Origin: Candidatus Bathyarchaeia archaeon
GTDB taxonomy: Archaea > Thermoproteota > Bathyarchaeia > Bathyarchaeales > Bathycorpusculaceae
Length of the DNA stretch: 64,000 bases
Direction: 5' to 3'
NCBI GenBank assembly: GCA_049515895.1
Contig: JBEKTQ010000010.1
Location: 66,259 to 130,258, forward strand
Part shown: one piece after another, positions 9,398-57,549 of the stretch
Position numbering within the stretch: the stretch's first letter is position 1
How the letters are laid out: every line of letters starts with the position of its first letter
The notes under the pieces: model-generated
What the model was told of the DNA's origin: nothing
What the model saw: the letters and a program-made list of their open reading frames with translations, nothing else
Databases searched by the model: none
Translations under genes and position numbers: made by a program

Positions 9398-10666
9398 TTA
9401 GCGTATTTTTAATTCAGCCATTTTGGCTCTGTGCCCAAGGAAATCCTCAATCCTTATTAGCTCATTGAGTTTGGCTATGCGCGCCCCTTCAACTACGCCT
9501 GTCTTGATGAGGGGACACTTGTAAGCCACAGCCAAATGAGCAATGTGCCAATCGCACGTGTCTCCCGAACGATGAGATACAACAGGATCGTACCCGTGCC
9601 TCTGCGCTGTCTCAATTGTCTGAGCGGCATCACTTAAAGTGCCAATCTGGTTGACTTTTATTATGATAGCATTTCCAGCGTTAATCTTTATTCCATTATT
9701 TAACCTTTCAGTATTAGTTGTGAACAAATCATCGCCGCAGATTAAGCAGTTTTTGGCTTTGCGGGTTAGCTCCGCGAAGCTTTCGTAGTCCTCCTCGTGG
9801 AATGGGTCCTCCACGTAGGTGAGATGATACTTTTCGATTAATTCAAGTAGGAACTCAAGCTGCTCAGCGGTCTCAAGCTTCTTTCCTTCGCTTGGATAAA
9901 CGTATTTTTCTTCTTTAGGCTTCCAAAGCGAGGAGGCTGCAACGTCTATGCCGAAGGCGCATTCAAAGTCTAGCTCGTTGCCGACTTCTTCGCATGCTTT
10001 CGCGATAACTTCAAACGCGTCAGATGTGTCTATGTTAGCTATCCAAGCGCCCTCATCGCTTTTGCCGCCGTTAAAAGTTGCGCTTTTCTTTTTCAGTGAA
10101 TCGCCGATTTTCCTGTGAATCTGAGTATTGGCTGTTTGGGCCTCAACAAAAGTTTCTGCGCCATGCGGCAACGCAAGGTACTCTTGAATGTCTGGGGATT
10201 TGCCCCTCGCATGTTGACCGCCGCTTATGCAATTGCCAAGGGGGTACGGAAGGGTTGTTGCGGCGTTTCCTCCAAGAAATTGGAATAGCAATAACCCGTG
10301 ACTGTTCGCGGCGGCTTCAGCGTTGGCTAGGGATATGGCGAAGGCTGTGTTTCCGCCTATGTTCTTAAAATCAGTTGACCCGTCCAGTTCATGGAGGGTA
10401 CTATCGATTTCCTCCTGAAAATCAGCGTTCAACCCTGCAAGTTCAGGAGCAATCAAATCGTCAACTTTCTTAATGGCTGCCTCCACTCCGCCCTGCGGGT
10501 AATAAACCACCTCAGCTCTCCCACGGCTTTTTCCAGCAGGAGCAGCCGCCCTTCCGAAGCCACCGGTGGTGATTACGTCAACCTCGATGGTTTCTTCTCC
10601 ACGGTTGTTGAAAACTTTTCTAGCAATGAGGTCTTCGATGATGGATGACACGCCTTTAAACCTCAA
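9398..10666 (-). CDS. eno: Enolase
   Basis: EDPFHEED, GDDLFTTN, IKVNQIGTL, VVSHRSG, RIAKLNEL. Confidence 0.95.
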   Translation of the reverse strand: MRFKGVSSIIEDLIARKVFNNRGEETIEVDVITTGGFGRAAAPAGKSRGRAEVVYYPQGGVEAAIKKVDDLIAPELAGLNADFQEEIDSTLHELDGSTDFKNIGGNTAFAISLANAEAAANSHGLLLFQFLGGNAATTLPYPLGNCISGGQHARGKSPDIQEYLALPHGAETFVEAQTANTQIHRKIGDSLKKKSATFNGGKSDEGAWIANIDTSDAFEVIAKACEEVGNELDFECAFGIDVAASSLWKPKEEKYVYPSEGKKLETAEQLEFLLELIEKYHLTYVEDPFHEEDYESFAELTRKAKNCLICGDDLFTTNTERLNNGIKINAGNAIIIKVNQIGTLSDAAQTIETAQRHGYDPVVSHRSGDTCDWHIAHLAVAYKCPLIKTGVVEGARIAKLNELIRIEDFLGHRAKMAELKIR

Positions 10667-15569: not shown

Positions 15570-16652
15570 TTAATTCTTTAGTTTTGTTGGCAAATACTCG
15601 TCAACAATGTAAGTTAAACCGTAACGGCTAAAAGCTTCTTGTTCCGCCTTTCTTTTTATTTTCAGGAACAATTTTATTTCTTTTTGCCAGATCGGGTCAT
15701 TTTGATACCTTGGGTCTTTCTGCAGCTCATACAGTCGTTTTATGTCTACATCATCCAGTGGGTCGGTCGGCAGTTTGTACTCGATTATGTCGCTTGCCCA
15801 AACCCCGCTCCACACAGCGTCGGGAGTGTTGAGATCTCTTAGGTGAGCTGCATTGGCTGAACCTGAAATTATGACTTGTGCAATGTGCATTCCCCACGGG
15901 TCTCCGTCGGTTAAAATGTAAACAGGAAGGTTCAGTTCATCGTGTAGGCGTCGGATGAAACTGCGGGTTTGCCTTGGCGCCTGTCCACCACATGAAATCA
16001 AAAGTGCCTTATGCTTGTTATGCACGTTTTCTTCAATGAACCTCGTGAACAGGGCGCCTTTCTCAATGGCGATGACTTTGTTGGCTTTTGTCTCCATCAA
16101 CTCTGATGAAGTTAAGGCAGGACCAATCAATACGCCGTCGGGGTGGCTGGTTAAATTCAAGGTTTTGCCCTCGTAGCCTGGGACAGTGTAGCCTATTGTT
16201 AAGTCGCCGAAGATTGCGCTACGCTCTTCTGGGAAAATGTTGAAGTCTTCTCGTGCAAACCCCGTTAAGGTTTCTAGGTCGGTGATGATATTGTTGGATT
16301 CCTGCTGGTCCGTGAAGGTCATCTCGTAAGCCTGGGCTGAGTAGTAAACGTCTCTTAATGTGCTGGTTTTGCGTTGGGTTGTAAGTTCATTGCTGAACAT
16401 GGCAGCCCACGCCAGTTGAGTAAACGGTTTAATGTGCCTTATGTTTCGGGCGCTGCGGCTAACTGATTTATCGCCTAAAATATACTGTCGGACAACCGAG
16501 TCGTAGGCTATGTTATCCGTGGACCGGCTTGGCATGTCAATAGTTGGGAAAACACCCTGGTCGAGCTGATTATAAATTTGGGTGCCGAAACTTCGGAGTC
16601 CACCGATGACTTCGTTTCTTTTCTCAATAATTTTAGCTTTCTTCTGCGCCAT
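15570..16652 (-). CDS. top6A: DNA topoisomerase VI subunit A
   Basis: TLRDVYY catalytic Tyr, IEK and DGDPWG TOPRIM motifs. Confidence 0.97.
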   Translation of the reverse strand: MAQKKAKIIEKRNEVIGGLRSFGTQIYNQLDQGVFPTIDMPSRSTDNIAYDSVVRQYILGDKSVSRSARNIRHIKPFTQLAWAAMFSNELTTQRKTSTLRDVYYSAQAYEMTFTDQQESNNIITDLETLTGFAREDFNIFPEERSAIFGDLTIGYTVPGYEGKTLNLTSHPDGVLIGPALTSSELMETKANKVIAIEKGALFTRFIEENVHNKHKALLISCGGQAPRQTRSFIRRLHDELNLPVYILTDGDPWGMHIAQVIISGSANAAHLRDLNTPDAVWSGVWASDIIEYKLPTDPLDDVDIKRLYELQKDPRYQNDPIWQKEIKLFLKIKRKAEQEAFSRYGLTYIVDEYLPTKLKN

Positions 16653-18258
16653 ACTTCTGTACACTCTTCAATAGTTTATCTATGTCGGGAACACGCTCTT
16701 GCCCAGCCAGCGTGGTTGAGAACTGGGCGATTTTAGGTAGGTACTTGCTGAAGATTCCAAGCCGCTTCTTTTCCATGTGGACGTGCTCTTGACGTGACAG
16801 GAAATGCTGCAATTGGCGGGCAACTTCGCGGATCGCGTTTGCTTCTTCTCGGCGGACTTCGGGGCGGTCGGCGATGAATTCTTTTCCAACCGTCTTGTAG
16901 GGCACTTTTGTGCTGCAAATGTGCACGACGATAGCTATGGGCATGTCCGGAGAGACTTTGTAGCGGCGCCAGTTCATGGCTGAGATTACGCGGTAAGAAA
17001 CATCGCTGGCCTCATCATATAGCAACGGGATTTTGTTGGCAAAACGGTAAATCACAAAGCTGCCTCGCTTTGGTACTCCGCCGCCGTAGGCAATTGCCAT
17101 TTCAACGATGAAGGGGTGACCTGCATAAGTGGATGGCTTGCGTTGGTTTACGACAAGGTACTCTGGGTTTAACTCTTTTTGTACGCCGGCTTTAAGCAGT
17201 TCCTCGCCTAAGGGTGAGAGGCAGCTGGCGTCTGGCGGCAGGAAATCCTTGTATTTCTTGAGGTTCTGCATCAAGCGAACAATTTCCTCATGGGACAGCC
17301 GTTTAGGGTTCTTAGTGCTTGATTGTGCGTCTTTCCCGCATTGGGGACAAACAGGCCGGTTGTCAACCAATTTTATCTGGTCACTTAGAATTTTACCGTG
17401 ATTCGCACAGGTGAACGAGATCAAATCGCTGAAGATTAAGAATTTAAGAGCCGTGACATCGCCGACACGGTGAAAGTGCCCGGTCAAGAAATCAGTCATG
17501 TTGTTGTAGGGGGTAATCTGTATGAGACGCTGTAGAAGCTCCACGTCTACGCCGTAGGGGTGTGGCAGCGTTTCTTTAGGCGGTTCCGGCATGTCAGTGG
17601 TTGCGCGGGTAAACTTGTAGAGCCTGCCTTTTGGGTCGACAAACGTCAGATTCGCATATGGGTTTACCATGGCTGTTTGTTTGAAGTAATCGAGGATTTT
17701 AGGCATGGCCCTGAGATAGTCGCCTTCAAGGGAGAACTCGACTATTGTTCCGCGCCAGTTGTCCTTGTTGATTTGGACTTTGCGGTCAAGGATTATCGGG
17801 CGGTTCCTTTGAATATCGATCATTAATTTGAAACTGTAAATTTTTGCTTGACCCGTACATGAAACAACAAAGGCTGGTTGATGAGTAGTGATTTGCCCGT
17901 ACAGTACAGCCATTTTTCCGCCCAGTCCGAAGGTTCCACGCGTCTGCTTCAGCTTATATTTGCTGCCGAAGAGCACCTGCCCAAAAGCGGACGGTATAAA
18001 GCGTGGCTGGATTCCGCTGCCGTTATCTTCTACACGCAGCTTGTAAATTTGAGTGTCTTTTGTGGCTTCCCCTTCAAAGGATAGGCGCACGTAGATGTTG
18101 GGTGGAATTTTTTGGCTTTCAGCGGCGTCTAAAGAGTTTTCGACTAACTCACGGATTGCGGCGAATATGGCTCTAGATGGGTTTGTGAAGCCAGCGATGT
18201 CTCTGTTTCTGTAAAAAAAGTCACTGGCGGAAATCTCTTCGAAGGTTGCTTGAGCCAC
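16633..18258 (-). CDS. top6B: DNA topoisomerase VI subunit B
   Basis: ELVENSLDA, EDNGSG, RGTFGLG, RFANKIPLL, STKVPY. Confidence 0.97.
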   Translation of the reverse strand: MAQATFEEISASDFFYRNRDIAGFTNPSRAIFAAIRELVENSLDAAESQKIPPNIYVRLSFEGEATKDTQIYKLRVEDNGSGIQPRFIPSAFGQVLFGSKYKLKQTRGTFGLGGKMAVLYGQITTHQPAFVVSCTGQAKIYSFKLMIDIQRNRPIILDRKVQINKDNWRGTIVEFSLEGDYLRAMPKILDYFKQTAMVNPYANLTFVDPKGRLYKFTRATTDMPEPPKETLPHPYGVDVELLQRLIQITPYNNMTDFLTGHFHRVGDVTALKFLIFSDLISFTCANHGKILSDQIKLVDNRPVCPQCGKDAQSSTKNPKRLSHEEIVRLMQNLKKYKDFLPPDASCLSPLGEELLKAGVQKELNPEYLVVNQRKPSTYAGHPFIVEMAIAYGGGVPKRGSFVIYRFANKIPLLYDEASDVSYRVISAMNWRRYKVSPDMPIAIVVHICSTKVPYKTVGKEFIADRPEVRREEANAIREVARQLQHFLSRQEHVHMEKKRLGIFSKYLPKIAQFSTTLAGQERVPDIDKLLKSVQKYGAEES

Positions 18259-18489
18259 TTGCCGCTTACACCACTATTTCCCTGTTTTTCTCCCTTTCGA
18301 GTGCTTAGTATATTTGTTGCTTGTTTTTTAAGTTAACTGCATCTTAAGAAGAAAACATTTGATTTTGGCAGAGAGCTTTTGCTGGAAAATGGTTATTTTT
18401 GCTTTAAACGTGTAAAATAAGCCTACTTTATGCGTAACGGCTACAAGAAGAGCATAGCTTTGAAAATCGAAGAAATGCAGGAACATTGG

Positions 18490-20295
18490 CTACTTTTTAG
18501 GGGGCGTTTCTGGTTTGGTTGTTTTGGTGTAGTAGTATTCGCCTATGCCTTTTTGGAACTTGTCCATTTGGGAGTCTTCTTTGTTGACTCTTGGGCGCAT
18601 GGTGACTGAGTCTCTCCGGAAGGTTATGTCCATTTCTTTAAGGAACGAGTTCATGCCTTTCCTGAGACTGGTGGGGGATTGAGCTATGCCGCTTACGCCT
18701 GGTTCGCCGTTGAAAACCATTAAGCGGTCTGCGATGAAGTCTTGGGTCACAACGTCATGTTCAACGACGAAGGCTGGAATGCCGTGCGCTTCGACAACCC
18801 GACGTAACGTCTTAGCCATGTTTAAGCGTTCTTCGACATCTAGGTAAGCGCTTGGCTCGTCAAGTAGAAACAGGTCAGCTTTGCGGCTGAGGCAAGCGGC
18901 GATGGCGACTTTTTGCAGTTCACCACCGCTAAGCTCCATCACATTTCGATCCATCAAAACCTGAAGTCTCAGTGGCTGGGCAACTTCGGTTTTGTACCAG
19001 CTTGACGTAAAGTTTTCTTTAGCAACACTCATGAGAAGTTCTTGAACTGTGCCGGCATAATCAGGTGCTATGTACTGGGGCTTGTAGCTTACAGTTAATT
19101 CGCCAAACTTCTGCTTGTCATCGCTTAACTCAACGCCAGCAAGAATCTTTACAAACGTGGTTTTTCCAATACCGTTGGGACCTAGAATGCCAACTATTTC
19201 ACCGACTTTGATTTCGCCGGGTTCAACTGATAGTTTAAATTCGTTGAAGGACTTTTCCATGTGATCCCACTTTAAGATTGGTTCGCCTACATTTGTGCCC
19301 GCCGTCGGCGGCTTTTCGTGGAAAACGATTGCTTCCCTGCGGAACATTATGTTCTCGTCTGGGATGTAGCCTTGCAAGTAAATGTTTATGCCTGTTCGCA
19401 CCCCATGAACGTGCGAAACCACCCCATAGACGCTTGGTTCGCCGTAGAAGAGGCAGATTTGATCGGACAGGTAATCGATTATGGCTAAGTCGTGTTCAGC
19501 TACAACTATGGTTTTCTGTAGTTCCTTGAGGCTGCGTATCGCCCTTGCCACGACAAGCCTCTGTTTCACGTCCAGGTAGCTTGACGGCTCATCAAAAAGG
19601 TAAACATCCGCGTCGCGGCTCAGCGCGGCTGCAACTGCTACACGCTGAAGTTCCCCACCGCTAAGAACGTCTAAGGATCGATCCCACACTTTTTTTAGTT
19701 CAAGCTCTTCAGCGATTGCGTTTAACTGTTTTCTTTCATCGACCTTTTCCAGCAAATCGCCGACTTTGCCAGCGATTGCCTTTGGGATTTTATCCACGTA
19801 TTGTGGTTTGGTACTCACCTTGAGTTTTTTCTCGCTCATTTTTTGGAAGTAATCTTGAAGGCTTGAACCCCGATAATATTGAATTATCTCTGGCCAATCT
19901 GGCGGGTCATTGAACTTGCCAAAGTTCGGTATGATCTCGCCCGAGAAAACCTTAAGGGTCGTGGTTTTGCCGATACCGTTTTGTCCAAGTAAACCTAGCA
20001 CTGTGCCGGGTGAAGGCATGGGCAAACGGAAAAGTTTGAAGCTGTTTTCGCTAAAGCGGTGGCTGCAATCTTTCTCCAGCTCGTCCGGCAAATTGACGAT
20101 GCTGATGGCTTTGAACGGGCATTTCTTGACGCATATCCCGCAGCCGCTGCAAAGAGTTTCAGATATTACTGCTTTGTTTCCTTCAACTCTTATGGCTTCC
20201 ACTCGGCTGCGAACCATCGGGCAGAAGCTAACGCAGGGTTGGTTGCACTTTTTGACTTTGCATTTGTCCTGGTTAAGAACAGCAATTCTAGTCAT
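18490..20295 (-). CDS. abce1: Ribosome recycling ATPase ABCE1/Rli1
   Basis: N-terminal 2x[4Fe-4S] Cys motifs, two ABC domains (GQNGIGKTT, LSGGELQ, DEPS). Confidence 0.97.
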   Translation of the reverse strand: MTRIAVLNQDKCKVKKCNQPCVSFCPMVRSRVEAIRVEGNKAVISETLCSGCGICVKKCPFKAISIVNLPDELEKDCSHRFSENSFKLFRLPMPSPGTVLGLLGQNGIGKTTTLKVFSGEIIPNFGKFNDPPDWPEIIQYYRGSSLQDYFQKMSEKKLKVSTKPQYVDKIPKAIAGKVGDLLEKVDERKQLNAIAEELELKKVWDRSLDVLSGGELQRVAVAAALSRDADVYLFDEPSSYLDVKQRLVVARAIRSLKELQKTIVVAEHDLAIIDYLSDQICLFYGEPSVYGVVSHVHGVRTGINIYLQGYIPDENIMFRREAIVFHEKPPTAGTNVGEPILKWDHMEKSFNEFKLSVEPGEIKVGEIVGILGPNGIGKTTFVKILAGVELSDDKQKFGELTVSYKPQYIAPDYAGTVQELLMSVAKENFTSSWYKTEVAQPLRLQVLMDRNVMELSGGELQKVAIAACLSRKADLFLLDEPSAYLDVEERLNMAKTLRRVVEAHGIPAFVVEHDVVTQDFIADRLMVFNGEPGVSGIAQSPTSLRKGMNSFLKEMDITFRRDSVTMRPRVNKEDSQMDKFQKGIGEYYYTKTTKPETPPKK

Positions 20296-25712: not shown

Positions 25713-26045
25713 TTTTTAAACACCTTTTCTCCTTTCATTTGTTGTTAAACCAAAAGTTAGCGTCTTTCGCTTTTAAACCATATTGCGAATCATGAAACAT
25801 ATCTGCAGACGCCTTCCTTCCGAAATCAACTATAACAAGCAACTTGCTTATAAATTGTTACCGAGCAAGCTAGAAATGATTAATGTTAAACATTCATTCA
25901 TTAAATGGAATTGAAATCAATAAAGCTTCGAAGTTTTTTGAAGATTAGTGGCTGGCCGGCTTGGGTTTTTTGATGTTTATGTGGGTGGACTGGTGACTTG
26001 TGAGCGTTAAACTTAACTAAGGAAACCTGCAAATCATCACTTATT

Positions 26046-26654
26046 ATGAGGTGTGGAGAAGTGGTTTCCGAAACTGAATATGAAGTTCCAACTTGGAATC
26101 AGATATACGACATGTTGCTGAACCAAGCCGGGAAAATCCGAGGCGATGGCTACGCACCCGACATCATCGTGGGAATTGCGCGGGGTGGATTGGTGCCTTC
26201 ACGCATTTTGGCGGATCTTCTGGAGACGCGGGACTTCGCAATAATCACGATAGAATATTACTTTGGCATCGCCCAGAGGCAACGAGAGCCCATATTGAAA
26301 CAGTGCCTCCACACCCAGCTAACGGGCAAAAAGGTTTTGTTGGTTGATGATGTTTCCGACGGCGGCAGAAGCCTGCAGCTTGCCAAGAAGCATCTGGAGG
26401 AGCAGTGCGCCAAAGAAATCAAGATTGCCACGATCTACTGCAAACCCGGCACCGTAACGACGCCTGATTATTTCGAAAAGGAGACAAGCCACTGGATTGT
26501 TTTTCCCTGGGAAGCCAGAGAAACCTTGACGAAGATAGGGCGCAGAGTTGACGACAAACGCGCGATGGGCCAGGAAGTTTCAAATCTTGTGAGGGCAGGC
26601 TTTCCCAAGCAGTTGGCTGAGAAACTGCTTAGTGATGGCGGTCAGAACCCGTAA
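26046..26654 (+). CDS. Type I phosphoribosyltransferase (purine PRT-like)
   Basis: GIARGG, VLLVDDVSDGGRSL, WIVFPWE. Confidence 0.9.
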   Translation: MRCGEVVSETEYEVPTWNQIYDMLLNQAGKIRGDGYAPDIIVGIARGGLVPSRILADLLETRDFAIITIEYYFGIAQRQREPILKQCLHTQLTGKKVLLVDDVSDGGRSLQLAKKHLEEQCAKEIKIATIYCKPGTVTTPDYFEKETSHWIVFPWEARETLTKIGRRVDDKRAMGQEVSNLVRAGFPKQLAEKLLSDGGQNP

Positions 26655-27220
26655 TGCTGCATTATTTTGAAGAGTTCGGCGTGTACTGTGAGGTAACGGG
26701 GTTTAAGGGGGTAAGGTTTTCTGACGCAGAAGGTTTCCTGAAAGAGAGCCGAAAGAGAACTCGTTTAAAAGTTGAGATGCAGTTTTTCGATGCAAATGTA
26801 ATTGCTTCCTATCGGCATCTTTACTTCGCTGTTCTTAACGCGTTGCAAGCCTTCCAGAACAAAACAAACCTTTCGAGAAGTTTAGCCGTCGAAACGATGC
26901 TTTATGCTTCTGCGCAGCGGCAGATACAAAAAGCGATCCAACGCTGCGGTATCAAGCCTCAAACCGCAAACATGGCAACCACAATAATCGGCGAAAAACC
27001 CGGTGAAATCCGCGCCATGGTCGGAGAAATCAAGGCATGCGTTGGAGCGGAACCTGATGAAACCGTGCTGGAAATGACCGAGGTTAAGCTTGAGAGAATT
27101 AAGGTAGTCTTTCAGATTAAAGCTGAAGAGATTAAGTCTGTAATGAAGGATGAATGCCAAACCGATGCCGTTGTCAACCTTGTCGTTGAGCGTGTAGCCT
27201 TGCTTGCGACTCAGCTTTGA
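26654..27220 (+). CDS. cgi121: KEOPS complex subunit Cgi121
   Basis: HLYFAVLNA, ETMLYASAQRQIQKAI, VVERVALL. Confidence 0.9.
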   Translation: MLHYFEEFGVYCEVTGFKGVRFSDAEGFLKESRKRTRLKVEMQFFDANVIASYRHLYFAVLNALQAFQNKTNLSRSLAVETMLYASAQRQIQKAIQRCGIKPQTANMATTIIGEKPGEIRAMVGEIKACVGAEPDETVLEMTEVKLERIKVVFQIKAEEIKSVMKDECQTDAVVNLVVERVALLATQL

Positions 27221-49793: not shown

Positions 49794-50092
49794 TCAAAGT
49801 CTTCGGATAAACTCTATTCCAGCTAACAATATTTGAATTTGAAGACGACTAAGCTGCCCTCCCCGCTCTAAGTCGTAGGCGGGAAAGTAGTGGCAGATTA
49901 GGAGGATGCTTTGCAGTTCGCTGCTGCTGTTGAGCCAGGCCTGGACGTCTTCTTGGCTGGTAAGAAACTTGCATTCAAAACGGTTTCCTGGAGAACTCTG
50001 GAAACGTCATATGGCAAGGCTCTTAGTTTTTCAAGAGTAACATCGGAATCAGCGGCTGCCATCGACCTAAACAAAGCCTGCAGATTGCGCTC
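49794..50092 (-). pseudogene. 5'-truncated tail assembly chaperone-like G/GT overlapping frames
   Basis: ERNLQALFRSMAAADSDVTLEKLRALPYD...ASFLPAKK and -1 frame FLTSQEDVQAWLNSS...LSRLQIQILLAG. Confidence 0.45.
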
Positions 50093-50285
50093 TCACGCGC
50101 GCTACTATATCTTCAGCGTATTTCCTTGCAGAACCACAAGGTCTAAACTCCAAGAGTTAATTGGTGGTTTACTTGCTTGTCAGTTGAATCATTCATTGCT
50201 CAACATCAGGGAGACGACTATAATAGATAGCGCCATAGAGATTCCAAGCGGCGCATTTGCAAGCGAAAGTTCGGGAAAAAAATGG

Positions 50286-51068
50286 ATGAGGAAAAATAAA
50301 CCTTTACAGAAAAATGATTCATTCCAAAAGTTACAAACCGCCTCCAATTCCACGAGAAATCATGTCAGAGGACTGCACAAATACTGGCATTATCTATTCG
50401 TAATTTCCGTTCTAACAGTATTGCTGAGCGTACTAGCTCTAATTAATGGATATTTTCATTTAATCACCATCTCGCCCTATAGTACAAGTCAGCAAAATGT
50501 GTCGTCGGTAACTTTAATGTCGGGATACCTTGGCATGTTCCTCAGCATCACATTTTCACCAGTTCCCGATTACTTTCTCGTCCCAGCATACGGCTATCTA
50601 TCAATGATTGGGATATTCAATCCATATTACACTTTCATCTTATGTCTATTGGGCTCCTTGGTTCCCATAGAATACTTATGCGGCAGATTTGCGGCCAGAC
50701 CCTTACTGAAGAAAGTTCTGTCTTTCATGCGCATATCCGAGCAAAACCTGGAAAAGACAGATAACTGGTTAATAGAGCACGGGAAATTCTCCATTTTCAT
50801 ATCCACCTTCATCCCCTTCTTTTACAGTGCGGCTTCTCTGGCTGCCGGGACTCTAAAAATGAAATTAACCGAATTTTTTCTGTCTAGCACCGCAGGCTTC
50901 GCGTTAAGATTCTTATTCTTAGAGGCCGTGGGCTACTATGGCATCTATGTATTCACATCATCGTTTGATTACTCCCAGAGGAACTTGTTCTTTGTGCTAC
51001 TGCTGCTTTCATCTGTTTACGTTGCTATTCATCTTGTAAGAGTTTTAGCCCGCAATTGGATTAAGTAA
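50286..51068 (+). CDS. DedA/VTT-family membrane protein
   Basis: SPVPDYF, YLCGRF, FISTFIPF, AGTLKM; start ATG 50286 rather than 49911. Confidence 0.85.
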   Translation: MRKNKPLQKNDSFQKLQTASNSTRNHVRGLHKYWHYLFVISVLTVLLSVLALINGYFHLITISPYSTSQQNVSSVTLMSGYLGMFLSITFSPVPDYFLVPAYGYLSMIGIFNPYYTFILCLLGSLVPIEYLCGRFAARPLLKKVLSFMRISEQNLEKTDNWLIEHGKFSIFISTFIPFFYSAASLAAGTLKMKLTEFFLSSTAGFALRFLFLEAVGYYGIYVFTSSFDYSQRNLFFVLLLLSSVYVAIHLVRVLARNWIK

Positions 51069-51297
51069 TTAAAGCGCAGTTGATTGCGCGTATGACTACA
51101 CCTATTTAACCTGGTTAACTAAGCGCGCGCGTTTTCAATTCATCATATTTCTGTCTCAATTGAGCTTTATAGGGTTAAATGTTTACACTTGCAATAAATG
51201 CGGTAACCATTTCAAGGTAATTAGCTAAAGGCTACTTAGATTAGGCACAAAAGACGCCGAGAAAGCAAACAAGATCTTTCGGAGACCCATATTTCGC

Positions 51298-51675
51298 TTA
51301 GCGCGCACGCTTATTGATCTCTCTTTGTTTTGCTTCTGGAATCAACTGATTCAGTTTACTAACCAGCTTCTCGGCTTCTTCTGTTCGAAGCGGAATATTT
51401 ACATCTACGTCGGGCAATGCTATTTTGACTTCTCCCGTTTTTTCCATATTCACAGAATTAATGTCAGATAAGTGGATATGCAATGGCACAAAGACCCTCA
51501 AGATACGACCAAATGTTTCCGTAAGGCCTGGCGCGTTTTCAAGCGCTTCCTCGATTTCGTTTTTCACGTTTCCTCTCACGTCTATTTTCAACAGATTGTT
51601 GGAAACCTTAATAACAAAATTTGGATGGTCAATCTCCAAAACCAAATCGGTCTCTGACATTCTTAACCCCTTCAA
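51298..51675 (-). CDS. Hypothetical protein (PH-like), 3' end at a (GC)n tract
   Basis: IHLSDINSVNME pattern; last codons are the GCGTGCGCGC tract. Confidence 0.55.
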   Translation of the reverse strand: MKGLRMSETDLVLEIDHPNFVIKVSNNLLKIDVRGNVKNEIEEALENAPGLTETFGRILRVFVPLHIHLSDINSVNMEKTGEVKIALPDVDVNIPLRTEEAEKLVSKLNQLIPEAKQREINKRAR

Positions 51676-51865
51676 TTCTCGTTACAACTATAGACGCGGA
51701 AATAAACTTTCACTTGCGAAAATGGAGGCGCCGCTCCATCGGCGTCCGCTTGAAAATTTGGTCGCCAAACCCAAAATTAAAATTAGTGAACACATAAAAC
51801 TATGCTAATTGGAATTTATTTCAATAGCGGGGAAAAACACTCGAAAGTTATGTCTAAGTTGATTA

Positions 51866-52137
51866 CTACTTCGTTTTAGCTTTATCCCTGAGGGCTTCGA
51901 GTTTCTCTGAGACTTTTTTGCTTCGTTCTTCTGCTTCAGCCAGCATGGGTTTCCAATCTTTGTTTTTGACTATATTGGTTATTCGTTCAGTTTCTGCGGG
52001 CAACTTCTCCAGGGTTTCGCTCATGCGTTTATCGGCTTCTTCATCAGTGGTTACGATCTCTAGGGCTTCTTCGGGGCAGAATTCTACACATTGAGGTTCC
52101 CCGCCGCAAAGATCGCATGCTACTGAAAAGCCTGTGT
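51866..52137 (-). pseudogene. C-terminal fragment of 4Fe-4S dicluster protein
   Basis: ACDLCGGEPQCVEFCPEEAL then helical tail; 5' part missing at the IS boundary. Confidence 0.75.
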
Positions 52138-52144
52138 CGCGCGC

Positions 52145-53241
52145 TGGTTTGTCCCGAAATTGAAAAGCTTATTTTAATAGAGGGGTCTCGTATCAAATAA
52201 GTCACGTCCAAGCTTAGGAGGTGAGTCCTAGCGGGACAAGATGAACACGAGACCCTAGAAGTCCTCTTCAGAAACATTGACTTAAGCTTTGCTAAACGAG
52301 TTATGAGAGGCTGCTTTCACACTTATGGACCAGGCAGGCATCCCAGAAATCCATTTGGCCTTTTCAGAACCATCATCATAATGAAGATGAAAGGCGTTCG
52401 CAGCCTAAGAGAAATGACCCGCCTACTTGACACTGATTTGCGACTTAGAAAGTTGTGTTTAATAAAGAAAAAGGAAACAGCGTACCCTAGAAGCGTTCTG
52501 AGCAGGTTCAGTGGAAGGGTTGGAGAAGACAAACTAACCAAAATAATAGAGGAGAAGGTTGTTAAGCTCTTGAAACAGAACGGCGCGAAAGAAGTTGATG
52601 CTGTTTTTGATGCTTCTTTCATTAAAGTTTGGAGTACACGAGACCCGGAAGACAACCAAACGGGATACTCAGACGCAGAAGCCAGAGTTGGAAGAGCAGG
52701 CAGAACATTCGGGCTTGGATACAAGTTACATTTGGCTATTGACTCTAAGACTATGCTTCCTTTGGCTTGCACCTTTGCATCCGCCAACCAGAACGAGCAG
52801 AAACACTCCTTGAACATGTTAGAGAAGGCAAAGCTGGTTCTCAAACAATCTGCGGCCAAACTGAAAAGCGTGATTGCTGACAGTCAGTACAGCGACGGCA
52901 AACTCAGAAACGCCGTTGACAAGACGGTGATTCCTTATCGGTCAAACCAGAAACGTAACGTTAATGGTTTGCTTAGGGTAGACAAGAAGTTCAGAACCTA
53001 CGGACCTGAAGAACAGAAAATGGAGTATCACAAAAGGCCACGCATTGAAGCGGTCTACAGCTTCCTGAAGACTCAGTGCAGTCTGACAATCAACAAGGTT
53101 AGAGGCTTGGGCAACGTAGCTTCATACGCTCTCTTCAGCATTCTTTGCTTGGTTCTCAACCGAGAGGCAGCTGAAAACATCGGCAGATCTGATAAAGCAG
53201 TATCACCTACCTACTTCAACACGTAATATCGGGACAAGGCA
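52145..53241 (+). mobile_element. IS element A (IS5/IS1182-like DDE)
   Basis: TIRs TGGTTTGTCCCGAAATT / TGCCTTGTCCCGATATT, each directly flanked by GCGCGC. Confidence 0.88.
52303..53226 (+). CDS. DDE transposase (DDE_Tnp_1-like)
   Basis: DASFI, GYKLHL, ADSQYS, RPRIE; frame extends to 52228 after a GGAGGTGA SD. Confidence 0.9.
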   Translation: MRGCFHTYGPGRHPRNPFGLFRTIIIMKMKGVRSLREMTRLLDTDLRLRKLCLIKKKETAYPRSVLSRFSGRVGEDKLTKIIEEKVVKLLKQNGAKEVDAVFDASFIKVWSTRDPEDNQTGYSDAEARVGRAGRTFGLGYKLHLAIDSKTMLPLACTFASANQNEQKHSLNMLEKAKLVLKQSAAKLKSVIADSQYSDGKLRNAVDKTVIPYRSNQKRNVNGLLRVDKKFRTYGPEEQKMEYHKRPRIEAVYSFLKTQCSLTINKVRGLGNVASYALFSILCLVLNREAAENIGRSDKAVSPTYFNT

Positions 53242-53466
53242 GCGCGCGAACAAGTACTCATTTTTACTAGCACCAAACCAAAGTTTACTGAGCGCGCTAG
53301 CTTATGGTCAAACAATCCAGTTCTAGTCCGAGTAATCCAACAGTGGTATGATTTCATGTGGGAAAAGAGTAGCTTAAAATGTGTTAGATAGTGCAGATAG
53401 AAGGTTTTCTTAATGATGCTATTCTTGTTCTACAACTTTAGATTCGGGCGTTCAAATTAATCTCTG

Positions 53467-53679
53467 TTAAGGAAAGGCAATATTTATCATCGTTAATATC
53501 AAAATATTGAATTTGAGGACGGGCTCTCTTTTGCGCCGGCTTAGTATCACGGACTTTAGAATTGGATTCTTTGTTGGAATCTTACCAAAAAAACGAAGCA
53601 AGGAATAGCTGAGACAGCATCCGATAATCATACCACCAAGCAAAGATATTGATTGTGGTCTGAACCCATTACGGTTCAA
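53467..53679 (-). pseudogene. Fragment of a membrane protein gene
   Basis: SLLGGMIIGCCLSYSLLRFFGKIPTKNPILKSVILS core with non-coding-like ends. Confidence 0.4.
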
Positions 53680-53694
53680 ATCCCGCTCGATCCA
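53673..53694 (+). other. tRNA 3'-end remnant (att-like, tRNA-Ala-like)
   Basis: GGTTCAAATCCCGCTCGATCCA without 5' half. Confidence 0.55.
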
Positions 53695-53821
53695 CTACTC
53701 ACATCTTTTTACTGGTAAATTGGCGTCAAAATCCCATTCCCGGGGCCTTTTTAAGACGTCTATTGAGCTTAGCGCGCGCGCTAAATCAGGGCAAAAGTTT
53801 TTTTAAGCTCATGACATGAAA

Positions 53822-53868
53822 CGACCCGACAAAGCAGTCTCACCAACCATTTCAACATGTAGTATCGA
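53822..53868 (+). pseudogene. 3' remnant of an IS-A-type transposase gene
   Basis: CGACCCGACAAAGCAGTCTCACCAACC..TTCAACATGTAGTATCG resembles IS-A end GATAAAGCAGTATCACCTACCTACTTCAACACGTAATATCG. Confidence 0.7.
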
Positions 53869-53874
53869 GCGCGC

Positions 53875-54982
53875 CAGTTTGTTGCTTAAATATTGAAGTG
53901 AACATATTCATGTTTAAATTTGTTCGAACTTGAGTATATAGGGTGAAGGATGGAAGAACCCGAATTTTCATGTACCATCCTGTCAAAACTGAACCTATGT
54001 GACATAGAAAAAGTCGTCAAGGAAGCCTACCATAAAGAAAATAGTCCGGGCCGCCCTCCGAGAAAACCCATGGGCATCTTTAAAGCGCTCATCGTTAAAC
54101 GGCTCCAGCAGATTCCCAGCGAAAGAGAAATCTGCAGACGATTATGGAAAGACGAGAATCTTAGAGAACTCTGCGACATAGAAGCTGAAGAGAATCCTTA
54201 TCACCCGTCTCAGTTGTCACGGTTTAAGAAGCGTGTCGGAAATAGGAGGCTTCAGAGAATCATGGACAAGCTGCTCAAGGAGTTATTGAGGGGCGGTGTT
54301 ATAAGCGGCGAAACGGTGGACTCGGACGCTACGTTCGTAGCCGCGTACAGTCGGCGTGACCCGCACGATAACAGTCGTGGAAAGTCTGATCCCGAAGCTA
54401 GGGTTGGCAGAGACGGAAAAACCTACGGGCTCGGCTACAAACTGCACATAATTACGGATGCTAAGTCAGAGTTGCCCTTGGCAGTTATCGCTGCGCCTGC
54501 GAACGATAACGAGAAGAAGCATGCTCCTGCCCTTTTTCGCAGGGCTTGGAAGGTAAGCGAGCATCGAATTAAAACTTTCATTGCAGATTCACAGTATTCA
54601 AGCAGAAAACTAAGAGACCGGCTTTCAGCGTGCGGTGTCAACGCGGTGGTTCCCTATCCGGCCAATCAGAAAAAAGAAGAGGCTGCGGGTGGACAAGTAC
54701 TTCAGAACCATGGTCCCAGCTTAGAGAAGCAGCTCTACAGGCAGAGAAGCGGGGTTGAGCGGGTGAATTCGAGGCAGAAGGAGCAGCTTTGTCTTGAAAG
54801 GCATAGGGCTAGAGGTCTAAAACGAGTAACTACGCATGCGCTGCTCTTCATGATCGCCATGCTGCTCAATGGGGTGGTAGCGTTGAGGCTAGGCAGACCG
54901 GAAAAAGCGAGATCAATCACTATGCTCGCAAGGTAAAGGCAAACAGACGTTAACACAAAGAAATCGAATTAGCAACAAGCTG
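53875..54982 (+). mobile_element. IS element B (same family as A)
   Basis: TIRs CAGTTTGTTGCT / CAGCTTGTTGCT flanked by GCGCGC and GCGCGCGC. Confidence 0.88.
53950..54936 (+). CDS. DDE transposase with a short out-of-frame segment
   Basis: GRPP, DATFV, GYKLH, ADSQYS, RSGVER; conserved LRVDKYFR lies in another frame at about 54680-54710. Confidence 0.85.
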   Translation: MEEPEFSCTILSKLNLCDIEKVVKEAYHKENSPGRPPRKPMGIFKALIVKRLQQIPSEREICRRLWKDENLRELCDIEAEENPYHPSQLSRFKKRVGNRRLQRIMDKLLKELLRGGVISGETVDSDATFVAAYSRRDPHDNSRGKSDPEARVGRDGKTYGLGYKLHIITDAKSELPLAVIAAPANDNEKKHAPALFRRAWKVSEHRIKTFIADSQYSSRKLRDRLSACGVNAVVPYPANQKKEEAAGGQVLQNHGPSLEKQLYRQRSGVERVNSRQKEQLCLERHRARGLKRVTTHALLFMIAMLLNGVVALRLGRPEKARSITMLAR

Positions 54983-54990
54983 GCGCGCGC

Positions 54991-55326
54991 CCAATTTAGG
55001 GATTAATTCACCTTTGACGTCCTCTCCAGCGATGTCCTCGTTGTAGTTTTCGTCTTCATGAGCTTCTTCTTCGGACCCTTCTTCTGCATCTTCTTCAATT
55101 GCTCTTTCTCTGGCGCCTGCAGCCCGTGCTTCATCTTCAGCTTCGCCTTTTGGAGGAAAAGCATCGTCTAACCACACAGTTTAAACTGTTTTTTGCCTTC
55201 AGGATTGGAAAAAGCCCACTCACACAATTCACTGAAAACGCTATTCAGGTCAACTTGGTGCTCGTTAGCTAACTGTTTTAGGTATTGTTCCCACTTAGCA
55301 GGAATAGATATCGCTAATCTGCTCAT
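54991..55326 (-). pseudogene. Frameshifted ribbon-helix-helix-like protein with acidic tail
   Basis: MSRLAISIPAKWEQYLKQLA...KQFKL / WLDDAFPP split at a TGTGTG near 55175; runs into IS-B tract. Confidence 0.6.
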
Positions 55327-55330
55327 TTTC

Positions 55331-55522
55331 TTACTCGTGCCCTTTTGTTTCATGGTGAATTGTATCTCTGTGTCTCTCCATCTCTGAGTTGGTCTTGAAG
55401 GTTTTACCGCAATCTGGACAAGGAATCTGGCTTGGTTCTACTCCCCTCACTGGTATTTCTTGAGATGAAGGCGCTCCCAACGTGTGAGGCTGATGAGTCT
55501 CTTTCTTTTTCATGACTTGCAC
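55331..55522 (-). CDS. Small C2H2 zinc-finger protein
   Basis: CPDCGKTFKTNSEMERHRDTIH. Confidence 0.75.
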   Translation of the reverse strand: MQVMKKKETHQPHTLGAPSSQEIPVRGVEPSQIPCPDCGKTFKTNSEMERHRDTIHHETKGHE

Positions 55523-55845
55523 CCAAACACTCTAGAAGAGGGTTCAAGCTTTCTTAAATATATGTGGATGTAGCGAAACAATAACAAAGTCACTTTTGTT
55601 TCAAGACTCGAGTGGTTGTTAAAGTGCAAACTAATAGTTGACAGTTAACAAAAGGATTTTCCGTTTGTTTGGGTTTTTGGATTAAATCTTAATCCCACAC
55701 ACACTTGTTTTTCATTAATTATCCTGAAATAGCATCTTAAATATGTGAACCTTAAATGAGAATCGTACGTAGTCTTGATTATATGAGAATCCTTGTATTC
55801 ACTGAAGGTACGCTAATCAGCACAAGCCTAACATCTCTAAAGGAG

Positions 55846-57243
55846 TCAGAGGTCATATTCTTCCAAGTATACGGGAGCGGTCACTTCCCATCCGCCTTTT
55901 GAATTCAGGTAGTTTTCTAAGCTCAAGATCGATCCTTCTTCGCCATGAGTCAAGAAAACATGCTTCGGCGGAGCTTTGAAGTTGTCAAGCCAGCGGTGCA
56001 AATCATTCATACCAGCATGCGCAGATAAACCATTAATGTTCTCAATCCTCATCCGTACGGGGTAGGATTCACCGAGAATACTTACTGGGGAAACGCCGTC
56101 CAAGATTTGTCGTCCAAGGGTTCCAACCGCTTGGTACCCCACAAAAATAAGTGCAGATTCGGGACGCGTTATTTCTCTGACCAGATGATGTTTAATTCGT
56201 CCTCCAGTAATCATCCCCGAACCAGCCATTATGATTGTTGACCCTTTGATCAGGTTGATCGCTTTCGATCCTTCAACAGATTCGACTAGCTTCAATCCTG
56301 GAAAATCAAAGGGTGTTTGACCATCCTTGAATAGTTCCAGAGCTTTTTTGTCAAAGTACTTCTTGCTCTGTTCAAAAACCTTCGTGATTTCTACAGCCAT
56401 AGGGCTATCGAGAAACGTAACAATGTAAGGAATTCTTTTTGCACGCGCCAACAAGCTAATATGGTATAAGAGCTCTTGGGCTCGTTCAATAGCGAAGGTG
56501 GGGATAATGACATTACCGCCAGATTTTATTGTGTCATTGATAATCTTGCTGAGTTTATCATCAATATCTTGTAAGTTATCATGATTTCGATCTCCATATG
56601 TGGACTCCATGACCACGTAATCTGCTCGATCAAATACTGTGGGGTTGTTGAGTAGAGGCGTATCCCACTGTCCGATATCGCCAGAGAATATGACGTTTCG
56701 CGACCCGTTCTCGTCTTGTAAAACGATCTCAATCATGGCCGAGCCAAGGATGTGGCCGGCATCGTGGAAACAAACCTTGATTTGATCGTTTAGCGGCAGA
56801 AACTCTTCGTATGGAACAGCTTTCAGGAGGGGAAAGCACTTTTCTGCATCTTGGACTGTGTATAAAGGGGTTTCCGTGTAAGGCTCCTCATGTTCTTCGT
56901 TGTTGTTTCGGTTTTTCTTGAAGGCAGCGTCTTCTTCTTGGATGCGGGCAGAATCTAAAATCACTATTGGGAACAACTCCTTAGAAGCAGCGGTTAGTAG
57001 AATATCTCCGTGAAACCCTTCTTTGACAAGTTTAGGAATAAGTCCAGAGTGGTCTTGGTGAACATGGGTGAGGAGGAGATATTCGATCTGGTCTGGAGGA
57101 ATAGGGAAAGCCTCCCAGTTTCTGTGGGAATAGTCCCGTTCTTGAAACATGCCGCAATCGATGAGGATTTTCACTTTGGCGGTTTCCAGTAAGTAGCTTG
57201 ATCCTGTCACTTGATGTGTTGCGCCTAGGAATTTTATTTTCAT
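55846..57243 (-). CDS. MBL-fold beta-CASP ribonuclease (YSH1/CPSF-like)
   Basis: THVHQDHSG, AGHILGS, SGD, ESTYG, GYQAVGTLGR, SAHA, HGE. Confidence 0.93.
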   Translation of the reverse strand: MKIKFLGATHQVTGSSYLLETAKVKILIDCGMFQERDYSHRNWEAFPIPPDQIEYLLLTHVHQDHSGLIPKLVKEGFHGDILLTAASKELFPIVILDSARIQEEDAAFKKNRNNNEEHEEPYTETPLYTVQDAEKCFPLLKAVPYEEFLPLNDQIKVCFHDAGHILGSAMIEIVLQDENGSRNVIFSGDIGQWDTPLLNNPTVFDRADYVVMESTYGDRNHDNLQDIDDKLSKIINDTIKSGGNVIIPTFAIERAQELLYHISLLARAKRIPYIVTFLDSPMAVEITKVFEQSKKYFDKKALELFKDGQTPFDFPGLKLVESVEGSKAINLIKGSTIIMAGSGMITGGRIKHHLVREITRPESALIFVGYQAVGTLGRQILDGVSPVSILGESYPVRMRIENINGLSAHAGMNDLHRWLDNFKAPPKHVFLTHGEEGSILSLENYLNSKGGWEVTAPVYLEEYDL

Positions 57244-57549
57244 GATCTTCTTTCACTACATTGTTATTTCTCATTTCTGCCCTATGAGTTCTTCCATTAC
57301 TACTCGTAGTTGAGTGCAATCTCTTTGTATGCTGCAGGCTCAGCGCGCGCTGCGGCACTACTTTTAAGTAGTTTTATATTGCCATTAAATAGGTGATGAA
57401 AGAATGTCAGGACTGATCCTTTCTGGAAAAGCAAACGAACTTGTTTGTTGAGCCTCAGAAAATCTTGCAATTGCTTGACTGAAACTTCAAGTTATCTTTT
57501 TCTTTCATCTGAAAAGTGACGTAAATCTATGAAAGGGAGGTGAAGACCT

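Follow-up and report, generated by a model that had tools for sequence, protein, structure and literature searches.

Our data suggest that the two insertion sequences (IS) described here, IS-A and IS-B, belong to a Bathyarchaeia lineage of IS5-like cut-and-paste DDE elements inserting at short alternating G/C tracts, a reading to which we assign a probability of roughly 65%. Both elements lie within a stretch of 64,000 nucleotides from a Candidatus Bathyarchaeia archaeon of peat, referred to as the window (C10:66259-130258; positions given without a contig are those of the window), in a genome of 3.18 Mb in 53 contigs with 44% G+C (G000). Throughout, C, G and L followed by a number denote contigs, genomes and element loci in genome contigs, respectively. 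Comparison of related copies argues that the hexamer GCGCGC found at the element ends is at least partly target DNA and not just the tip of the inverted repeat.

IS-A has a core of 1097 bp on the forward strand (52145-53241), bounded by the inverted repeats TGGTTTGTCCCGA (52145-52157) and TGCCTTGTCCCGA, the reverse complement of 53229-53241, which match at 11 of 13 nucleotides. From direct reading and the tract list it is flanked on the left by CGCGCGC (52138-52144, the GCGCGC part being 52139-52144) and on the right by GCGCGCG (53242-53248), the junctions reading ..gtgtC GCGCGC|TGGTTTGTCCCGA ... TCGGGACAAGGCA|GCGCGCG aac... The core of IS-B comprises 1108 bp, also on the forward strand (53875-54982), with the inverted repeats CAGTTTGTTGCT and CAGCTTGTTGCT matching at 11 of 12 nucleotides and junctions reading ..atcga GCGCGC|CAGTTTGTTGCT ... 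AGCAACAAGCTG|GCGCGCGC cc..; its right flanking tract is a (GC)4 (54983-54990), the outer 3-4 nt of which are common to relatives lacking the element. The coordinates of both elements in the initial annotation are correct to the base, and its observation that all four ends adjoin a (GC)3-4 tract is read directly in the sequence. Each element contains one intact open reading frame (ORF) on the forward strand, encoding a transposase of 307 amino acids in IS-A (52303-53226) and of 328 amino acids in IS-B (53950-54936), the two being 41% identical. The assignment as DDE transposases is borne out by matches above cut-off for both proteins to the Pfam models PF01609 (DDE_Tnp_1; 58 bits for IS-A, 87.5 bits for IS-B) and PF05598 (DUF772; 29.7 and 52.5 bits). 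IS-A is the sole full copy in G000, the related genome G016 having full copies at 79% identity, while diverged copies or fragments of IS-B are found on C26, C28, C11, C45, C34, C36 and C27 of G000. Since GCGCGC occurs 571 times in G000, counting overlapping occurrences, i.e. with about one start per 5.6 kb, its presence at four of four ends is far beyond chance.

The association with GCGCGC is not limited to these two elements. In G000, every recognisable B-type end adjoins GCGCGC, except one at GCATGC, and the A-type ends, two MITEs (miniature inverted-repeat transposable elements) included, adjoin GCGCGC or a one-base variant. A third element (C12:83359-84557), with a transposase only 26-28% identical and unrelated inverted repeats (ATAAGTGTTCATTAATTC), has GCGCGC on both sides as well. 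We found 79 loci in public records of Bathyarchaeia metagenome-assembled genomes (MAGs) and delimited 54 complete elements, which, like IS-A and IS-B, are bounded by inverted repeats and fall into the size range of IS5 family elements (about 0.8-1.5 kb). GCGCGC is present on both sides in 40 of these 54; the remaining 14 deviate by one or two bases on one side, and in one case on both sides. Among all sequences examined, 140 of 176 unique ends show GCGCGC, some of the other 36 being chance matches to the end pattern. A logo built from 108 ends reads, from the element outward, G108, C108, G106, C104, G104, C98, followed by G40/T46/A16/C6 at position 7. The lineage is abundant, 1317 related proteins being found at E ≤ 1e-5, many of them on contigs of about 1.1 kb; the transposases of the relatives have a length of 290-340 amino acids in a search restricted to near-length proteins. 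A direct repeat outside the hexamers was found in none of the complete elements examined, including IS-A, IS-B, the C12 element and the G016 copies. As the initial annotation had pointed out, the length of a target-site duplication is unreadable in a repetitive target, any repeat inside the tract being hidden.

The same pattern could arise if GCGCGC was the conserved 6-bp tip of the inverted repeat, carried by the element itself, with no target preference and no visible duplication. The two readings are difficult to tell apart, GCGCGC being a direct and an inverted repeat at the same time. Repeat tips usually are the best conserved part of an IS family, and the hexamer is common to three element types with unrelated inner repeats. 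The lack of a duplication outside the hexamer and the homologues of two flanks having no tract at the junction are compatible with a carried tip, as are contigs of other copies in four peat/wetland runs, which share element and hexamer and diverge just outside (52138/52139 and 53247). Several lines of evidence make this explanation very improbable to us. G016 contains five copies being 99.5-99.8% identical over 1100 nt, i.e. young copies, of which two have the flanks GCGCGC/GCGCGG and ACGCGC/GCGCGT, respectively; these near-identical copies differ exactly at the outermost hexamer bases, and at this divergence three changes in 24 flank positions have a probability of about 3e-5. The outermost base is therefore neither carried by the element nor duplicated, and these copies rule out a duplication of 6 bp as well as a hexamer carried in full. 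Furthermore, the alternation continues beyond the hexamer: among 93 ends with a run of at least 6 nt, 34 reach 7 nt and 16 reach at least 8 nt, the latter comparing to about 4.5% expected from the flank composition (P 4e-6). This speaks for a target, because a carried hexamer gives no reason for it.

In one case the hexamer is native coding sequence. At L057, a B-type element interrupts a rubrerythrin-like gene, whose reading frame runs on through the left hexamer GCACGC (..E T V H A); G000 has gtt cat gcg cac at this position of its homologue, and the deviant A is the base required by the His codon. Similarly, at L074 of G016 the deviating outer G of GCGCGG is part of a repeated GGGGTAA...TTACCCC element. 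Two genomes of the genus contain this palindromic repeat, GGGGTAA(N)TTTTC...TTTTTTACCCC, in tandem-like pairs, the positions being C21 (about 124284-124389) and C24 (about 19348-19435) in G000 and, directly against an insertion, L074 in G016. Where ends of different elements abut, there is one common hexamer between them and not one for each, as is seen in the window, at L076/L019 in the order A-type end, GCGCGT, B-type remnant, and at L083; on C11 the spacer between abutting ends is 10 nt long (GCGCGCATGC). Finally, the outer CGC or GCGC of the 8-nt right tract of IS-B is found in four relatives without the element, which read ..tttgaGCGCccaatt, ..tttgatCGCccaattt, ..ttgacCGCccaag and ..aatCGCTccgtt. 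These observations argue that the outermost flank bases come from the target. The (GC)n target specificity proposed by the initial annotation is thereby supported indirectly by four independent lines, namely the young copies, the alternation past 6 nt, the coding hexamer and the shared hexamers, and the outer bases are not part of the inverted repeat; the claim has to be restricted for the innermost one to three bases, which may belong to the element.

Other observations weigh against insertion into pre-existing G/C tracts. We found no true empty allele, so the target was never seen unoccupied at the same locus. Two paralogues of the sequence left of IS-A, located at the ends of C2 and C25, have ..cctgtgtc|tgggtgaattgag.. 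and contain no G/C tract, and a comparison of a G016 MITE (L037) with C37 of G000 likewise shows no G/C tract at the start of the hexamer; both comparisons represent rearranged junctions instead of empty sites, because homology is not regained beyond the element. No variation is seen at the two innermost bases (108 of 108 ends) and conservation drops outward, which also fits inner bases owned by the element. At the right flank of IS-B the relatives have just CGC or GCGC compared to 8 nt in the window, so that the ancestral tract would have to be longer for a duplication of 4 bp. The variants GCACGC (four ends) and GCATGC occur on one side with no matching change on the opposite side, arguing against a 4-bp duplication over that position, unless old copies have mutated. 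Taken together, these points suggest that the element, or else a very short duplication, may account for one to three of the inner bases. Models leaving empty sites of 6, 8 or 10 nt all fit the clear cases, and a duplication of 2-4 bp inside the tract is most likely.

Three of these points, namely the outward drop of conservation from two invariant inner bases, the only 3-4 ancestral tract bases retained at the right flank of IS-B and the unmirrored one-sided variants, would also be explained by an insertion replacing the palindrome. The element would then carry up to five of the six hexamer bases, and the G/C palindrome or its unusual structure would be recognised and replaced or bluntly joined, with no duplication. 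PMC5678879 provides a precedent in IS1272 of Staphylococcus, an element of the IS1182 family with inverted-repeat targets and no duplication, documented there by 19 pairs from databases and by three new insertions seen on comparing sister strains. The best NCBIfam model for both transposases is that of IS1182 (NF033551), the scores of 86.7 bits for IS-A and 150.5 bits for IS-B staying below the cut-off of 270 and the model being matched in 2-3 separate stretches. IS1182 family elements have about 1.3-1.9 kb and transposases of about 450-550 amino acids. IS-A and IS-B, having 1.1 kb and transposases of 307 and 328 amino acids, do not reach this size, and the elements are IS5-sized (1.1 kb, 307-331 amino acids). 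Moreover, the nearest bounded relative makes a 4-bp duplication, hexamer positions 1-3 at L057 are native, leaving at most three carried bases, and we found no empty site showing a replaced palindrome. We regard palindrome replacement as unlikely.

For insertion into G/C tracts we propose the following model. The transposases would select short alternating G/C palindromes, with the consensus GCGCGC and often longer, as insertion sites, and the element would enter the tract at its middle. Filling-in of a short staggered cut, which most likely spans 2-4 bp of G/C, perhaps with one terminal C...G contributed by the element, would then leave a GCGCGC on each side of the insert, one target becoming two. 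In a tract that is itself a palindromic repeat, the duplication would be invisible and mimic a longer inverted repeat, and because one target becomes two, ends of different elements would accumulate at common hexamers. Of this model, the data show how widespread the flanks are, that the outermost bases stem from the target and that the alternation goes on past the hexamer, while we infer how long the duplication is, which inner bases the element owns and that solo tracts are used or left-over sites. At L047, the right end of a B-type element shows a perfect 20-nt palindrome (AACGCACTGGCCAGTGCGTT) in place of the usual hexamer, the sole case among the 176 ends, split at the junction as AACGCACTGG|CCAGTGCGTT. 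Hairpins at transposon ends are part of the chemistry of Tn5 and Tn10. If the L047 palindrome was a mis-resolved end hairpin, it may place the tip one base into the hexamer.

Empty sites were searched for in several ways. Five close genomes contain nothing corresponding to the regions with elements and MITEs; flanks of the G016, G003 and G004 copies are not found side by side in G000, and the flanks of the 54 elements from other MAGs gave one-sided matches only. Contigs from the four peat/wetland runs mapped to 50000-57500 contain no joint skipping IS-A or IS-B; in run X3, two joints connect 53246/53249 to 53827/53869, stemming from a relative of about 90% identity and not being readable base by base. 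Metagenome contigs around the neighbouring beta-CASP gene yielded 80 loci (540 kb), in which synteny stops at the gene end and which contain a single decayed fragment of a MITE and no insertion that could be used. For the gene interrupted at L057, the missing half is absent from the MAG concerned. A reading-frame check of 51 of the 54 insertion sites, three having too little flank, showed that the sites do not lie in long ORFs, the shorter arm being at most 75 codons. A genus-wide search, scoring three candidates per genome, gave no further young bursts, the next best copy being 89% identical.

The initial annotation had further suggested that each insertion or excision regenerates or lengthens the target and builds a self-amplifying hotspot, and that the tracts of 9-10 nt elsewhere would be footprints. 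Tracts elsewhere do exist: between IS-A and IS-B lie a solo GCGCGC (53292-53297) and an isolated (GC)5 with TTA and TAA on its sides (TTA-(GC)5-TAA; 53772-53781). The census in G000 shows a strong phase bias, with 260 GC-phase and 113 CG-phase tracts of 6 nt, 49 and 6 of 8 nt, and 12 and 1 of 10 nt, i.e. at 8-10 nt the GC phase outnumbers the CG phase 8- to 12-fold; in addition there is one tract of 11 nt, one of 12 nt and none longer. CG-phase hexamers lie within long ORFs in 76% of cases, as does the genome at large, compared to 53% for GC-phase hexamers and 12-26% for tracts of at least 8 nt. G000 has 112 GCGCGCGC sites, compared to 0-27 in 18 sampled genomes of the genus, and across the 19 genomes the number of tracts follows that of transposase matches (Spearman 0.68, kin not being independent). 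Around the elements, the region of 38.8-57.4 kb contains 19 tracts of at least 6 nt compared to about 3 predicted from the genome average (572 tracts in 3.18 Mb), nearly all of them between long ORFs. A ceiling of 12 nt in GC phase only could result from two flank hexamers being joined on microhomology after loss of the element.

As an alternative, the intergenic (GC)n tracts could be a host feature or a mutational by-product, e.g. of dinucleotide slippage or as a protein-binding or structural motif, the element just using them as safe places to land, leaving no footprints and causing no self-amplification. Only 22 of the 572 tracts adjoin a recognisable end, and G016, having 12 transposase matches compared to 13 in G000, contains 17 GCGCGCGC sites compared to 112. 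Many tracts also bracket ordinary genes, as in a sugar-modification-like cluster on C28. G024, a genome of 1.9 Mb from the same order and another family, has 53 GCGCGCGC sites and no match to the transposase lineage, so tracts can also arise without the lineage, and another element or process may make G/C tracts there. Slippage alone does not predict the phase bias of (GC)4 over (CG)4 and (GC)5 over (CG)5, and a host feature is also argued against by the upper limit of 12 nt in G000, equal to two flank hexamers added up, by the correlation with transposase matches, with its reservation about kinship, and by the clustering of 19 tracts within 18.6 kb around the elements. On balance we consider a host origin of the tracts a possibility to be kept in mind, though it is more doubtful than not. 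The footprint and hotspot part of the initial annotation is consistent with the tract statistics, stays an inference and, in view of the G024 tracts, is plausible to a similarly tentative degree.

One may go further and regard element and target as a co-amplifying pair, each insertion making two (GC)n tracts from one and loss by end-joining on G/C microhomology leaving 6-12 nt, by which, over time, nearly every intergenic spacer of variable regions would acquire a landing pad, the tracts bracketing single genes like cassettes. Recognition would then possibly be that of a DNA structure, Z-DNA-prone or cruciform, instead of a base sequence, as proposed for the stem-loop targeting of IS1272; we consider this extended scenario speculative and rather unlikely.

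Additional observations concern the tracts themselves. Their spacing shows a general clustering below about 1.1 kb; intervals of 1.1 kb were considered as hidden elements and rejected, most containing ordinary genes without inverted repeats. On C28 (34 kb, about 16 tracts), single genes of the sugar-modification-like cluster are bracketed by (GC)3-5 in the spacers, without inverted repeats, examples being 9457-10560, 16308-17450, 17934-19179 and 25834-26987; judging from the translations, genes bracketed on C28 and C11 include those of an epimerase, an aminotransferase, a methyltransferase and a glycosyltransferase. An in-frame (GC)5 is found inside a remnant of a B-type transposase gene (C11:14732-14741; ..H S A R A A D P E A..); the corresponding stretch of IS-B consists of unrelated codons and is almost as long. 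The GCGCGCGC-rich genome G024 includes a tract of 14 nt.

The stretch between IS-A and IS-B contains the right-end remnant of a third A-type element on the forward strand (53810-53868), which can be aligned to 53180-53234 of IS-A, lacks the last 11 nt of the repeat and terminates with ..gtatcga directly at the next hexamer; this GCGCGC (53869-53874) is common to the remnant and the left end of IS-B. A-type right-end remnants of 45-90 nt are found at C34:1566-1637, C3:7093-7149 and 53772-53874 of the window, bounded on their inner side by (GC)6, CGCGCG and (GC)5, respectively, the alignments in G000 covering C34:1578-1631 and C3:7105-7143. The segment 53670-53700 (GGTTCAAATCCCGCT..), resembling a T-arm, was considered as a tRNA and dismissed, ARAGORN finding no tRNA in 36000-60000. 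Upstream of IS-A lies the 3' part of a ferredoxin-like (4Fe-4S) gene, present in three copies of 95-99% identity (51982-52138 of the window, C2:187818-187974 and C25:54137-54328); it is of full length only on C2, cut at IS-A in the window and cut after 192 nt on C25, and the C2 and C25 copies are located at contig ends. Two non-autonomous elements of about 470 bp with A-type ends and G/C flanks are present in G000 (C12:24581-25049 and C26:4765-5234), their small ORF resembling, on reading of its translation, a winged-helix DNA-binding protein with C-terminal cysteines. The C26 copy has 13 unrelated bases in place of the terminal repeat on one side and still ends at GCGCGC.

If the proposed target choice is correct, a DDE transposase with a nearly fixed palindromic G/C target of 6-10 bp would be among the most sequence-selective simple IS, coming from an uncultured archaeal class with undescribed mobile elements. 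It would explain short (GC)n runs at gene truncations and contig breaks in these genomes, and annotators should be cautious with flanks mimicking a longer inverted repeat. Should the number of tracts indeed grow together with the element, we would have a concrete example of a transposon that influences how much of its own target is available. Among the papers listed in our literature searches on GCGCGC target sites and on Bathyarchaeota insertion sequences we found no description of a near-fixed G/C target being regenerated on both sides in at least three diverged archaeal IS5-like types.

Insertion directed by palindromes or repeats is as such already known, from IS5, IS1272 and elements targeting repetitive extragenic palindromic (REP) units. 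With the IS5 family, IS-A and IS-B share a single ORF of about 310-330 amino acids combining DUF772 and DDE_Tnp_1, a size of about 1.1 kb and short inverted repeats, with scores for the best NCBIfam IS5 model (NF033581) of 74.5 bits for IS-A and 122.9 bits for IS-B not reaching the cut-off of 140. They differ in that the lineage is only 26-29% identical to plasmid-borne IS5-family transposases. IS5 of E. coli duplicates the 4-bp palindromic-type target YTAR, 4 bp being typical of the IS5 group; the target of IS-A and IS-B, in contrast, is an alternating G/C tract of 6-10 bp instead of an A/T-centred tetramer, with an unreadable duplication. The nearest plasmid-borne, bounded relative, an element of a Mesorhizobium terrae plasmid annotated as 'IS5 family transposase' and being 29% identical, has a repeat similar to those of IS-A and IS-B (TGGGCCTGTTGCG) and a 4-bp duplication, TCAT, in istB. 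In PMC3281130, duplications of 2, 4 and 9 bp are given for related groups, and ISPse1 of the IS1182 family is listed with 1653 bp and a 4-bp duplication. IS1272 resembles the lineage by palindromic targets without a visible duplication and differs by targets varying in sequence (PMC5678879), whereas the target of the IS-A/IS-B lineage is nearly fixed.

The REP-targeting elements and IS186 offer a further comparison. IS1397 and ISKpn1 target REP units, and IS186 targets G-rich...C-rich sites; we know of no element of this type regenerating its own target on both sides. Like IS-A and IS-B, these elements confine their insertion to short palindromic, mostly intergenic sequences. They differ in belonging to other transposase families and in using host repeats that exist independently of the element as targets.

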